Source: an uncultured archaeon
Lineage (GTDB): Archaea > Asgardarchaeota > Jordiarchaeia > Jordiarchaeales > Jordiarchaeaceae
Length of the DNA stretch: 20,486 nucleotides
Reading direction: 5' to 3'
NCBI GenBank assembly: GCA_964510585.1
Contig: CAZECW010000168.1
Location: 1 to 20,486, forward strand
Shown here: positions 14,500-20,172 of the stretch, one piece after another
Layout: each line of letters opens with the position of its first letter
Position numbering within the stretch: the stretch's first letter is position 1
Made by a program: the position numbers and the translations under genes
Notes under the pieces: model-generated
Told to the model about the DNA's origin: nothing
Database searches by the model: none
What the model saw: the letters and a program-made list of their open reading frames with translations, nothing else

Positions 14500-15741
14500 T
14501 TGGCTGAAATTAAGTGGCGAGTTCTATTTGATGAAACACAGAAAGAACGGGGACGTATTACAACAAGTTACGCTGCACTCAAAGGAGTTCTGGAAACTGA
14601 GGGCATTCAAAGTATAAGATTTGTTGATTTTCCAATAACATTGGATAAATTGAAGGACTTTGACGCTGTGGTATTCCCTTGTCCAGACCAGTCTAAACTG
14701 CAGCCTGGTGAAATTCGAGCGGTTTTGGATTACGTTTCCAGAGGTGGTGGAGTAGTTTTATTAAGCCATGCTGGCGGTGACAGGGGACTGAGAACCAATC
14801 TTAATGAGCTGGCTGAAAATTTTGGAATATCTTTTCAGAATAACCAAGTAACAGATGAGAGACAAAACTTGGGTTTGGAGAATCTACCAAAAATCACCAA
14901 GTTTAAGGATCACCCTGTTACCGAGGGAATAACAGAATTATGCTATTCTGCAGGTTGCAGCATAAAAATCGTTGGGGAAGCAGAAGCCTTAGCAATTACA
15001 AGCAGAACCGCTGAACCTCCAGATGCCATTATTCTAGCAGTTGCTAATTATGGAAATGGTAAGGTTGCCGCCCTAGGTTCATACGAAATTTTTAGAGATA
15101 GAATAATGGGTGGACTCAATACCTCGCAAAATATGGTTTTAGCAAAAAACATCTTTAAATGGATACTTACACCTTCAAAGCCTAAAGAAGCTCCTGCTAT
15201 ACCGGCTAAGGAGAAGATTAGTGAGGCAGTAGTGGAACCTAGTGTATCCCCGGAGGTTACACTAGGCGAAGAGAGAGTTAAACCCGTATTGACAGCGAGG
15301 CCTATGGAGGATGTTTCAAAAGCTCCGCAGCCTATAGCCGCTGCGTACACCCCTCAAATTGACAAGTTAATGACTGAGGTTACAACTTTAAGAAGGAGAT
15401 TCGATGCATTCATAGATGAGTTTAGAGAGTTTGCTGCACGAGTGCTGAGTCAAGGTATTACGCCTTCTGAAACTATTCGGACGGTTACACGTTCAGTACC
15501 TGTATCCTCGTCTCTAATAACTGATGTCGCTAAACGTGAAGAACTAGAAAGCTTAGAGTCAAGAATGCGCTCGCTCCAGAACCAGTTGGACTACATTACT
15601 AAGAGGTACCAGTCTGGAGCATTACAAAAAGCAGAGTACGCCGCACAAAGAGCAAAAATTCGGGGAGAAATGAGAACTATACAACAACAGATAAATGCAA
15701 TAACAGGAAAGACTGAGGAGCTACTGCCCACTGAGGATTAA
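14500..15741 (+). CDS. Cytoplasmic GIFT-domain (GldG/IFT52/DUF4350-like) protein with Pro-rich linker, coiled coil and C-terminal helical hairpin
   Basis: aa 1-224 align by eye to the IFT52 N-domain (VLFDETQKE, ITLDKL, EIRAVLDYVSRGGGV, GGD...TNLNEL..NFGI, GKVAALGS..IF.D, NIFKWI). No signal peptide or TM segment. Confidence 0.75.
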   Translation: MAEIKWRVLFDETQKERGRITTSYAALKGVLETEGIQSIRFVDFPITLDKLKDFDAVVFPCPDQSKLQPGEIRAVLDYVSRGGGVVLLSHAGGDRGLRTNLNELAENFGISFQNNQVTDERQNLGLENLPKITKFKDHPVTEGITELCYSAGCSIKIVGEAEALAITSRTAEPPDAIILAVANYGNGKVAALGSYEIFRDRIMGGLNTSQNMVLAKNIFKWILTPSKPKEAPAIPAKEKISEAVVEPSVSPEVTLGEERVKPVLTARPMEDVSKAPQPIAAAYTPQIDKLMTEVTTLRRRFDAFIDEFREFAARVLSQGITPSETIRTVTRSVPVSSSLITDVAKREELESLESRMRSLQNQLDYITKRYQSGALQKAEYAAQRAKIRGEMRTIQQQINAITGKTEELLPTED

Positions 15742-15871
15742 ATGACTTTTAGTGGTAAAGTCAATCTTTCTACCCATTTTTAGTAAACATTGATGAGAAC
15801 CTGTCACTTGTTGAGACAAGTGTGCTTCGCAGATAAATCATGAAAATGCTGTTCGTAGGGGAAACTTTGCA

Positions 15872-16438
15872 CTATTCTTTCATTTTTTTAAGGGTTTCGT
15901 CTCTTTCAAAGGCTTTTACTTTGTTTCTTATCCAAGTGTTTATCACCGCCTTAGCTTCTGGCATCAGTGTTTTCACCTTATCGAACAGTCCTAGTATGAA
16001 GACTATAATCTCGTCTTTTCTCCAACGGTCTTCCTGTTTAAAGAAGAATGTTATGTCGTAACCTTCTTCAGGGTTCATAACGTTAAGTTTCTCCCGAACC
16101 AGTTCCCGAACCAGTTTACTAATCAGGTATTCTTCGAAGGCGTCTCTCTTTTCAAAGTTGAGAGATAGTAGGGAGCTGTTAACTGTTTTTTGACCTTTTC
16201 CACGCATAACTTTTACTTCTTTGCACTGTCCGACATCGCATTTATTTTCGCAGAGTATACAGGGGTAGTCGCTGCCTCTGATTACGCAGACATGTGGCTG
16301 CAGGTCTAAAAGGAACTCTAAGGCGTCAGCTAATTCTTCAAGTTCAATTATTGTAACTTCTTCAACCTTGTCAAACCTTTCATCCAAAGACAGAGTGTCT
16401 AATGGCTCATTCGGTGGTTTGCCATATTTTTCTCCCAA
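15872..16438 (-). CDS. ARP2/3 complex subunit 4 (ARPC4)-like protein with Cys-rich insertion
   Basis: LLDLQPHVCVIR, VNSSLLSL...DAFEEYLISKLVREL, PEEGYDITFFF and the C-terminal helix mirror ARPC4 LLLQPVTISR, INSVRVSI...DEIEKILCHKFMRFM, PVEGYDISFLI (recalled human sequence). Confidence 0.7.
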   Translation of the reverse strand: MGEKYGKPPNEPLDTLSLDERFDKVEEVTIIELEELADALEFLLDLQPHVCVIRGSDYPCILCENKCDVGQCKEVKVMRGKGQKTVNSSLLSLNFEKRDAFEEYLISKLVRELVREKLNVMNPEEGYDITFFFKQEDRWRKDEIIVFILGLFDKVKTLMPEAKAVINTWIRNKVKAFERDETLKKMKE

Positions 16439-16879
16439 GGTAGTTTCACCACGAGAAAATATCAGAACTCGTATAGAATATTTAACCTGAAGCTATTTAT
16501 TTCTTCCCAGCAACTTTTGAGGAACAATACAGCTTCGTTTGATTTATCCCCCCGAATAAGCTTTTTTATGGAGACTTATTTTTCCACTATGAACCCCATA
16601 AATGAGGAAATGAATTTGAAAAATTCAGGCCACAAACCCAAATTTGAAGACTCCAAACTTTTCTTATGCAAACTATGAAAATTTTCTTGTCGAAAACTCA
16701 GATAAGAAAATAATTGGTATACTATGTACCTTTTAGGTAACCAAAACCTAGAAATACAGCCAATTCTCTTATCATAATTAATGACAAACTTCAATCATTG
16801 TTTTTAAGCACTCAAAAAGTCATGCGAACAAGCCTAACTTTTGATGATATTACCGAGTATGGAAATTGGTGATTTGGAT

Positions 16880-17569
16880 ATGCCGGTATTAAAGTACTTT
16901 GGCCACGCGGCATTCAAATTCTACTCGCCTAAGGTCAGCGTAATTTTCGATCCGGGCATAGTGAGTAATAAGGCGTTGGTGCCCGAGTCTGAAAAAACAA
17001 ATATCATCTGTGTATCACACGAGCATAGGGATCATTTGGGTAACGCTGCCCAACTTTCCGCAAAACAAAAGGCATTCCTACTGGGGAACGAGCAAACTAT
17101 AAAAGTAGCTCTAAAGGAAGGCGCGCCGGAATGGCTTGTAAGGAAAATACAAAGCGGAGAAACCTTTGAGAGACCCAACATAAAAGTAACAGCTCTGGAA
17201 CTTAGGCACGGCCCATCCACAGAGCCGATTAACACCCCCAATTTATGCTTCATAGTAGAAATTGACAAAGTGCGAGTAGCAAACCTCGGGGACGCCATGA
17301 CTAAGGGACTATTAGAACAGTATCCAATTGATGTTTTACTTATTGGAGTAGACGAAACAGAAGCCTTCAACAGTAACCAATCACTAAACGCCATCGCAGA
17401 CATTAAACCACAGCTAGCCATACCCATGCACATTAGAACCGAGCATGAAATAGACTACTTCTTTACCCATGCACAAACCGTAGCTCCCAAAACCAATTTC
17501 AGAAAAATGAAGCCGGGCGATGAAATAAGAGTTGAATGGCTAGCAGGAACAGAGTTTAGTATAAGTTAG
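16880..17569 (+). CDS. Metallo-beta-lactamase-fold hydrolase (UPF0173 / Lactamase_B_3-like)
   Basis: LKYFGHAAF, IFDP, VSHEHRDHLG (HxHxDH), HG, GDA and AIPMH. Start moved from 16841 to the ATG at 16880, which follows GGTGAT. Confidence 0.85.
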   Translation: MPVLKYFGHAAFKFYSPKVSVIFDPGIVSNKALVPESEKTNIICVSHEHRDHLGNAAQLSAKQKAFLLGNEQTIKVALKEGAPEWLVRKIQSGETFERPNIKVTALELRHGPSTEPINTPNLCFIVEIDKVRVANLGDAMTKGLLEQYPIDVLLIGVDETEAFNSNQSLNAIADIKPQLAIPMHIRTEHEIDYFFTHAQTVAPKTNFRKMKPGDEIRVEWLAGTEFSIS

Positions 17570-19498: not shown

Positions 19499-19500
19499 AA

Positions 19501-19520
19501 TTTCCCTCCTCTTTTTTATT
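19501..19520 (+). terminator. Possible pyrimidine/oligo-U terminator
   Basis: TTTCCCTCCTCTTTTTTATT immediately follows the stop at 19498. Confidence 0.4.
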
Positions 19521-19716
19521 TGTCCTCCATATTCCGCTCCCAATAGTACAGACAAAAATATGATTGGCGTTAAACATATGGAAGAGTTAATTGTCCTGGT
19601 AGAGGGAACTTTTAAAATAAACCGCTTTTTTGGAAAGAAGTAAATAATGTTAGATCAGTCCCCTTATGAACTAATACGCATCTAGGTTTTGTTTAAAAAA
19701 TCAAATAATTTCAATG

Positions 19717-20172
19717 CTATTTTTGTTCCTCTTTTACGGAAACGGCAATTATTTCTGCGAGGGCTTTGAGGGTTTCACTTATTCTCTGATCCACCCTTGA
19801 CGAGGACTCTTCAAGAGTGGTTTGAAAGCCCTTTATAATTTCAGCTATGTCCATCATGATCCCCTGGAGTGTTTCCCATTTCTCTTTTTCACTTTTGACC
19901 AACGCCTCTAACTGTTTACTAACCTTCTCCAGTTTCTGTGACATAACTTCAAAGGAAACTGTTTCCTCCGCAACCAGTTTACGGATATTTCTGAGCTCTT
20001 TATCTATGGCGGACATATTACTTGCTACATTCATACTTAGGTTGACCATGTCAGAGTTTAGGGTGTTTAAACCGTTTACCACCCTTTTCAAAGATTCCAC
20101 TGTGGGAACCTCACCCGCCGGTGTTTTGATGGCCTCAATCTGAATTTTAACTTTCTCTTTTTCTTCAGACAA
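19717..20172 (-). CDS. Hypothetical long coiled-coil protein
   Basis: Short N-terminal beta-hairpin-like segment (IEAIKTPAGEVPTV) then about 120 aa of heptad-like helix. TTG start after GAGGG. Confidence 0.7.
   Translation of the reverse strand: MSEEKEKVKIQIEAIKTPAGEVPTVESLKRVVNGLNTLNSDMVNLSMNVASNMSAIDKELRNIRKLVAEETVSFEVMSQKLEKVSKQLEALVKSEKEKWETLQGIMMDIAEIIKGFQTTLEESSSRVDQRISETLKALAEIIAVSVKEEQK

Follow-up and report, generated by a model that had tools for sequence, protein, structure and literature searches.

The window analysed here is the whole of contig C168 (CAZECW010000168.1; 20,486 nucleotides, 20.5 kb), from the 3.78-Mb, 96% complete genome of an uncultured Asgard archaeon. The names carried by near-identical proteins and contigs assign it to the Jordarchaeia/Freyarchaeia lineage, and 'Candidatus Freyarchaeum deiterrae' and 'Candidatus Jordarchaeum madagascariense' belong to the same genus. 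Five open reading frames (ORFs) lie between positions 14500 and 20172, and full-length orthologues were found for each. They encode a protein with a GIFT domain of the IFT52 type, an ARPC4-like protein, a metallo-beta-lactamase (MBL) fold hydrolase, a mu-homology domain (MHD) protein with C-terminal immunoglobulin (Ig)-like domains (MHD-Ig), and a coiled-coil protein of 151 amino acids (CC151). A first-pass annotation of the stretch had proposed that homologues of parts of intraflagellar transport, actin branching and cargo adaptors might form a coat–actin module here. Our analysis supports the homologies. It indicates that the stretch is probably a lineage-specific juxtaposition and not a dedicated coat–actin system, with the ARPC4-like protein acting alone, probably as a zinc-stabilized scaffold.

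The genes and their products

The right half of the contig reads orf338(−), PolB(−), PCC(+), GIFT(+), ARPC4-like(−), MBL(+), MHD-Ig(+) and CC151(−) (Table 1), confirming the alternating orientations that had been described. The five proteins were also expected to be cytosolic, and this agrees with the absence of transmembrane-like segments from all five (no 19-residue window above 1.6 on the Kyte–Doolittle scale). The ARPC4-like protein, the MHD and the GIFT domain were searched in 41 related genomes, representing 18 families and 25 genera, and ∼20 kb was fetched around the matches for comparison of neighbourhoods. Families are given codes, of which f1 is the window's own family, f2 the sister family in the same order, f3 Odin-type, f7 another large Asgard family, f13 Atabeyarchaeia and f15 Baldrarchaeia; g1 denotes the window's genus.

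Table 1. Positions of the genes and domains in the window, with the evidence for each assignment.
Feature	Positions	Strand	Evidence or context
orf338 (context)	9864..10880	−	No Pfam family
Family-B DNA polymerase, PolB (context)	11008..13674	−	DNA_pol_B 168.6 bits; exonuclease domain 85.7 bits
PCC (PF03479) domain protein (context)	13836..14312	+	PCC 110.7 bits; divergent from PolB, leads GIFT
GIFT protein, 413 aa	14500-15741	+	Pfam IFT52_GIFT
GIFT domain, IFT52 type	14500..15174	+	IFT52_GIFT match; PDB profile match
Pro/Ala/Glu-rich linker and coiled-coil tail of GIFT protein	15175..15741	+	Generic coiled-coil Pfam matches only
ARPC4-fold protein, 188 aa	15872-16438	−	PF05856; solo gene, convergent with GIFT
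Cys51/Cys60/Cys63/Cys67 cluster in ARPC4-like protein	16238..16288	−	Alignment and model
MBL hydrolase (metallo-beta-lactamase fold), HEHRDH motif	16841..17569	+	Lactamase_B_3 78.5 bits; between ARPC4-like and MHD
MHD-Ig protein, 593 aa	17717-19498	+	AlphaFold2 fold match; sub-threshold Pfam
Mu-homology domain, residues 3-325	17723..18691	+	Z 17.9 to mu2 168-435
C-terminal Ig-like (DUF11/DUF7507) domains of MHD protein, with stop codon	18692..19498	+	Pfam, model
CC151, 151-aa coiled-coil orphan	19717-20172	−	Weak coiled-coil Pfam matches only

The ARPC4-like protein is related to its eukaryotic namesake by both sequence and fold. It matches PF05856 at 30.1 bits against a cut-off of 22.2, and a profile of 20 Asgard sequences matches the ARPC4 chains in the PDB with E = 1.4e-12. 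The AlphaFold2 model (predicted local distance difference test score, pLDDT, 84.5) superimposes on bovine ARPC4 (1k8k_F) with Z = 17.5 and a root-mean-square deviation (rmsd) of 1.9 Å, aligning 154 of 167 residues (1k8k_F 2-167), while the next structure has Z = 5.8. Thus the fold is that of full-length ARPC4. The protein was found in 21 of the 41 genomes. Across 20 sequences, drawn from at least 10 families, C60, C63 and C67 do not vary, and at least 90% of the sequences have C51; in the model the cluster forms a loop between the helix of residues 16-43 and the strand of residues 73-77. Such an arrangement of cysteines suggests that the loop may bind zinc. In some lineages the protein is extended. 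In the Odinarchaeial form (377 aa) the N terminus is extended by ∼130 aa and the C terminus resembles a zinc ribbon (L026:9449-10582, L027:9235-10368), and the Atabeyarchaeial form (∼373 aa) has a C-terminal extension of ∼200 aa (L031:9956-11077, L034:9477-10598). No Pfam family was found in any of these extensions.

A branching complex requires more than this one subunit, and the rest is not in evidence. The genome contains one actin-family match at E ≤ 0.001, on another contig, C156, and that search revealed no Arp2- or Arp3-like paralogue in this 96% complete assembly. A search of the same genome for ARPC2 (PF04045) gave no match at E ≤ 1, and the control for that search likewise matched nowhere. 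With only this one actin gene, and Arp paralogues not detected, a canonical Arp2/3 complex is excluded, and the ARPC4-like protein cannot be part of one. ARPC4 ('ARP2/3 subunit 4') is already catalogued as an Asgard signature protein (bioRxiv 10.64898/2026.10.28.762692); a 2026 paper on Asgard motility contains nothing on it.

The GIFT protein matches IFT52_GIFT (PF23355) at 51.6 bits, the cut-off being 27.2. A profile of 21 sequences of the family matches the solved N-terminal domains of IFT52 (5fmr_A and 5fms_A) with E values of 1e-19 to 3e-19, the match to 5fms_A (E = 3e-19) covering residues 5-228 and ending near residue 230, and no other solved fold comes near in this search. Orthologues with E < 1e-40 are present in 24 of the 41 genomes. 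The middle and C-terminal regions of IFT52, which bind other IFT-B subunits, are absent; residues 225-413 give generic coiled-coil matches only. [quoted passage not shown] When the tail was searched alone at E ≤ 1, neither Vps23_core, VPS28 nor Mod_r occurred among the best 25 of 35 matches. The VPS28 model detects a real ESCRT-I gene elsewhere in the same genome, and VPS28 and Vps23_core both detect the ESCRT-I genes of sister family f2. By eye, the last pair of helices in the tail may be a SHOCT-like motif.

Two cysteines of the GIFT domain, C61 (14680-14682, in a PCPD motif) and C153 (14956-14958, in AGCS), do not vary among 21 GIFT proteins from Asgard archaea; the corresponding residues of 5fmr_A, the sole IFT52 sequence shown in the alignment, are Gly and Ala. 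From the alignment, the cysteines may form a site for catalysis or for a metal, one absent from IFT52. GIFT domains also occur in GldG and OST48/Wbp1 (Beatson and Ponting 2004, as cited in PMC3495828). We found no literature linking Asgard archaea with IFT52, and 'GIFT domain' combined with archaea led to general references only.

The MHD-Ig protein is recognized by its fold. Its match to Adap_comp_sub (PF00928), at 26.6 bits (E = 4.8e-6), lies below the cut-off of 31.6, and several of its orthologues carry a precomputed match to the same family. In the AlphaFold2 model (pLDDT 89.9) residues 3-325 superimpose on residues 168-435 of mu2 with Z = 17.9 and an rmsd of 3.5 Å over 227 residues. The whole C-terminal domain of mu2 is aligned, so that both subdomains of the MHD are present. 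The MHDs of the AP-1, AP-3 and AP-4 mu subunits, delta-COP, SGIP1 and FCHO1 give Z = 14.6-16.9. There is no N-terminal longin domain, as residue 3 already corresponds to mu2 168, and there is no Clat_adaptor_s match. The C-terminal part matches DUF11 (43.7 bits) and DUF7507 (27.0 bits), and is all-beta in the model with pLDDT ∼90. Thus each of the three homologues proposed in the first-pass annotation is a real one. Stand-alone proteins of the mu-subunit C-terminal domain have been reported in Asgard archaea (Eme et al. 2023, PMC10307638); we found no literature linking Asgard with PF00928 or 'mu homology domain'.

In f1, f2, f7 and f25 the gene directly upstream of MHD-Ig is MBL, which shares its strand and is separated from it by 5-147 bp, and the two look like an operon. 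Their products might act together, a cytosolic beta-sandwich binder working with a metal hydrolase. At two loci, labelled Helarchaeota and Promethearchaeota (L083:10001-13391, L085:544-3849), a Ras/Roc GTPase gene and a 68-aa ThiS/SAMP-like gene come after MHD-Ig on its own strand, and at one of these loci a GxGYxYP putative glycosidase gene precedes MHD-Ig. A further MHD-Ig homologue, of 39% identity, is on DATKTP010000264.1 (L069), filed in a bacterial bin of Candidatus Deferrimicrobium; the contig is probably from an Asgard archaeon and was mis-binned.

Distribution and synteny

How general is the cluster? The complete five-gene order is found in genus g1 only, where the proteins are 80-99% identical. 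In sister family f2, orf338-PolB-GIFT-ARPC4 is retained, the proteins being 51-66% identical, and the MBL-MHD pair is on other contigs. The adjacency of ARPC4-like and MHD genes is thus confined to g1; that of ARPC4-like and GIFT genes is found in f1 and f2 only and, since it reaches the sister family, is a property of the order. Outside these, none of the window's genes lies within 10 kb of the ARPC4-like gene at 11 loci of nine other families, nor do those loci have any neighbour in common across families. In three complete genomes (G021, G031 and G034) the ARPC4-like and MHD genes are 1.2-2.2 Mb apart. An ARPC4-like gene linked to MHD or GIFT was not found in other lineages.

The patterns of presence lead to the same view. 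By genus, the ARPC4-like protein occurs in 12 of 25, MHD in 22 and GIFT in 24. In Odin-type family f3 the ARPC4-like protein occurs and MHD does not, the reverse holds in eight families, and the three proteins show no co-variation across the 18 families. The synteny and phylogenetic profiling suggested for the idea of an MHD adaptor joined to an ARPC4/actin machine therefore both go against it, and the pairing at the heart of the coat–actin idea, that of MHD with ARPC4, is not conserved. Eme et al. (2023, PMC10307638) describe the Asgard homologues of adaptor-subunit domains as 'sparsely distributed'; the MHD-Ig protein is much commoner in Asgard than this would suggest.

An older neighbourhood

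A conserved arrangement does underlie the locus, of the form orf338-PolB, then divergently PCC-GIFT, a variable slot, and MBL-MHD. In f7 the order is orf338(−) PolB(−), PCC(+) HIT(−) GIFT(+), a minus-strand series of c35, c35, Rad50, Mre11, HerA and c15, and then MBL(+) MHD(+), the proteins being 27-49% identical to those of the window. This block is present in 11 of the 12 sampled f7 genera; the twelfth has the MHD-proximal part, on a short contig that ends before GIFT. The block is partly kept in f25, with GIFT, the same repair operon and then MBL-MHD, and f12 has orf338-PolB followed by PCC-MHD. Thus GIFT is 2-11 kb from MBL-MHD in f1, f7 (11 genera) and f25; it is not linked to that pair in f2, f4, f5, f10 and f18. 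The slot is occupied by the ARPC4-like gene in the window, and by the Rad50/Mre11/HerA operon of double-strand-break repair in f7 and f25. Outside the block the flanking genes differ between families and the boundaries are sharp, so that the block is better kept than its surroundings. Of the proposed conserved module, then, the GIFT...MBL-MHD part together with PolB, PCC and orf338 stands. The ARPC4 part does not, being linked to MHD in one genus and to GIFT in one order.

PolB anchors the neighbourhood, adjoining PCC/GIFT or PCC/MHD in f1, f2, f7 and f12, and its divergent arrangement with PCC is kept in f1, f7 and f12. In f1, f2, f7 and f12 orf338 lies downstream of PolB; in f8, f13 and f15 its place is directly downstream of MHD. 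It therefore links PolB and MHD. In the latter three families MHD and orf338 overlap by 4 bp or are separated by 16-49 bp, and look like an operon. Language-model features place orf338 closest to the named GHL10/GHL13 clusters, and its orthologues have weak GHL10/GHL13 Pfam matches; from these it may resemble the glycosyl-hydrolase-like TIM barrels. It also carries a CFCDSC motif.

GIFT has a different partner in other classes. An ATP-dependent DNA ligase gene follows it in f4, f5 and f18, with a gap of 18-36 bp or an overlap, and is divergent from it in f10; the pair was seen at loci of four families (L078:7181-10348, L079:9566-12768, L080:9680-12651, L081:7284-10105). The pair looks like an operon, one with no obvious rationale. 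A gene of ∼590 aa beside GIFT in four families (c4) was considered as a hidden MHD protein and rejected; it has no match to the MHD profile, and is an ATP-dependent DNA ligase. Two paralogous genes of ∼500 aa without a Pfam family always lie between GIFT and Rad50 in f7 (L071:12044-15073; L086-L097), and are also present in f25.

The remaining gene of the five, CC151, is as described in the first-pass annotation a coiled-coil orphan. It is a real gene kept within the order, with orthologues in f1 and f2 only, and we found for it neither a family nor a named neighbour in the Atlas. A 72-aa ORF on the minus strand in the divergent region between the ARPC4-like and MBL genes (16576-16794) has no relatives among the compared loci and is probably not a gene. 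The window contains no tRNA and no Rfam family. In one RNA library from sediment, each of the five genes is partly covered by short contigs that are 90-99% alike, which hints weakly at transcription in a close relative. Two hot-spring runs with a metatranscriptomic label span the whole stretch, and these resemble the DNA of a strain 90-95% alike.

Interpretation of the neighbourhood

The probable reading remains that of a lineage-specific juxtaposition, and the possibility that the neighbourhood is incidental, raised at the outset, is mostly favoured. Judging from strand and spacing there would be four transcription units: PCC with GIFT, the ARPC4-like gene alone on the opposite strand, MBL with MHD, and CC151 alone. 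GIFT, MHD and the ARPC4-like protein belong to three families that are widespread in Asgard and distributed independently. They would meet here because the old neighbourhood has a variable slot, which in Jordarchaeales is filled by the ARPC4-like gene. Joint function is better suggested by the links that are tight and deep, i.e. MBL with MHD-Ig and, in other classes, MHD with orf338 and GIFT with DNA ligase. On the simplest reading the ARPC4-like protein is most likely a small scaffold that works by itself and is probably stabilized by zinc.

Several observations weigh against this reading. A RING-ubiquitin-E2-E1 cascade comes after CC151 in three genomes of the genus besides that of the window. 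For the complete genome of the genus, the genes past CC151 are RING, ubiquitin, E2, E1 and CTP synthase. In the genome studied here, contig C60 (L106, 392-2549) begins with the same genes, and the window ends just before them (20173-20486), so that the break in the contig has hidden the cascade. In all three f2 genomes fetched, genes for EAP30 (Vps22/36-like), VPS28 and UEV-Vps23 are found at a distance of 1-4 kb from orf338-PolB-GIFT-ARPC4. With ubiquitin genes at the flank in the genus and ESCRT genes in f2, genes of trafficking type do gather around the block at the level of the order. Moreover, GIFT and MBL-MHD are linked in three families at 30-36% identity and with differing flanks, which seems more than inertia alone would be expected to give. 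Selection and inertia would nevertheless both fit the retention of the block. The f2 ESCRT genes also adjoin a zinc-ribbon gene (L023:1278-3481, L024:1281-3470, L025:16582-18778).

The retention of the block could be explained if GIFT, MBL, MHD-Ig, PCC and orf338 formed one functional system without the ARPC4-like protein, staying next to genes of replication and repair (PolB, DNA ligase and Mre11-Rad50-HerA) through a tie, by co-regulation or action, to DNA replication, repair or the cell cycle. We regard this as rather unlikely. It would account for the conservation of the block in f1, f7 (12 genera) and f25 and in part in f2 and f12, for its sharp boundaries and unconserved flanks, and for the operon-like MHD-orf338 and GIFT-ligase pairs of other families. 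The invariant C61 and C153, unmatched in 5fmr_A, would hint at a chemistry that IFT52 is without. However, the units of the block point different ways, and the unrelated HIT gene, the repair operon and the ARPC4-like gene are interposed between them. MHD or GIFT occurs without the neighbours of the block in many families (f9, f14, f16, f22, f26 and the Hel/Loki-type loci), and there is no known biochemistry linking the GIFT, MBL, MHD and orf338 folds to DNA metabolism.

Could the locus nevertheless be an island for membrane remodelling, where MHD-Ig selects possibly ubiquitylated cargo, the ARPC4-like protein couples it to actin and GIFT provides a scaffold, beside the ubiquitin and ESCRT genes? 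The three folds are truly homologous to parts of the eukaryotic trafficking machinery or cytoskeleton, the cluster is flanked by the ubiquitin cascade in the genus and by ESCRT-I/II genes in the sister family, and both the GTPase and ThiS-like genes that follow MHD at two loci and the sediment RNA contigs, as a weak hint of expression, are in keeping with it. Against this, the ARPC4-MHD adjacency is confined to one genus. Family f7 keeps GIFT...MBL-MHD, yet no ARPC4-like gene was found there, and a search of a single f7 genome, G015 (98% complete), gave no match to VPS28 or UQ_con. In the complete genome of the genus ESCRT-I is ∼95 kb from the cluster, and in f2 the ubiquitin E2 gene is far from MHD. 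An Arp2/Arp3-like paralogue and ARPC2 were not found (the ARPC2 control matching nowhere), and the MHD protein has neither a longin domain nor adaptin partners alongside. We therefore think such an island highly improbable. That a Jordarchaeales island of the MHD-Ig cargo binder, ARPC4-like protein, IFT52-like GIFT protein and ubiquitin/ESCRT-I/II genes is a primitive system of sorting and membrane remodelling is very doubtful indeed.

A conserved MHD-ARPC4 pair, if real, would be the first indication from genomes of a pre-eukaryotic coupling between cargo adaptors and actin nucleation; the evidence speaks against such a pair. What remains is of interest in other ways. The Asgard ARPC4-like protein combines a complete ARPC4 fold with a conserved cysteine cluster. 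The reproducible partners of MHD and GIFT (MBL, orf338, PolB and DNA ligase) provide leads on the roles of these domains before coats and cilia. The neighbourhood of PolB, GIFT, MBL-MHD and orf338 deserves a further look, as do its ubiquitin and ESCRT flanks.

Comparison with known systems

The gene families are of known kinds with new members, ARPC4 and mu C-terminal domains having already been catalogued in Asgard. The locus is like the Asgard ubiquitin–ESCRT cluster in having RING-ubiquitin-E2-E1 directly past CC151 in the genus, and EAP30-VPS28-UEV/Vps23 beside the f2 block. Unlike that cluster, none of the five window genes belongs to an ESCRT family, the flanking genes differ between f1 and f2, and ESCRT-I lies at a distance in the complete genome of the genus.

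IFT52 is the best match of the GIFT protein in both Pfam and solved structures, with the whole GIFT domain spanned. The Asgard protein differs in having a Pro-rich linker and coiled coil in place of the middle and C-terminal regions, in its two invariant cysteines, unmatched in the IFT52 sequence shown, and in the neighbours of its gene, PolB or DNA ligase. Eukaryotic ARPC4 (p20-Arc) is likewise matched above the PF05856 cut-off and over its full length. In contrast to it, the Asgard protein carries a conserved Cx8CxxCxxxC insert before the first strand, is fused to other domains in some lineages, and occurs in a host with a single actin-family gene and no ARPC2 match (in a search whose control matched nowhere).

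The MHD-Ig protein departs from the adaptor mu subunits in lacking the longin domain and having instead ∼270 C-terminal residues of DUF11-type Ig-like domains, and its conserved partners are the MBL hydrolase or the hydrolase-like TIM-barrel candidate, not adaptin subunits. Yet the two-subdomain beta fold of the AP-1 to AP-4 mu subunits, delta-COP and the muniscins (FCHO, SGIP1) is fully matched, with Z = 14.6-15.6 for delta-COP, SGIP1 and FCHO1.

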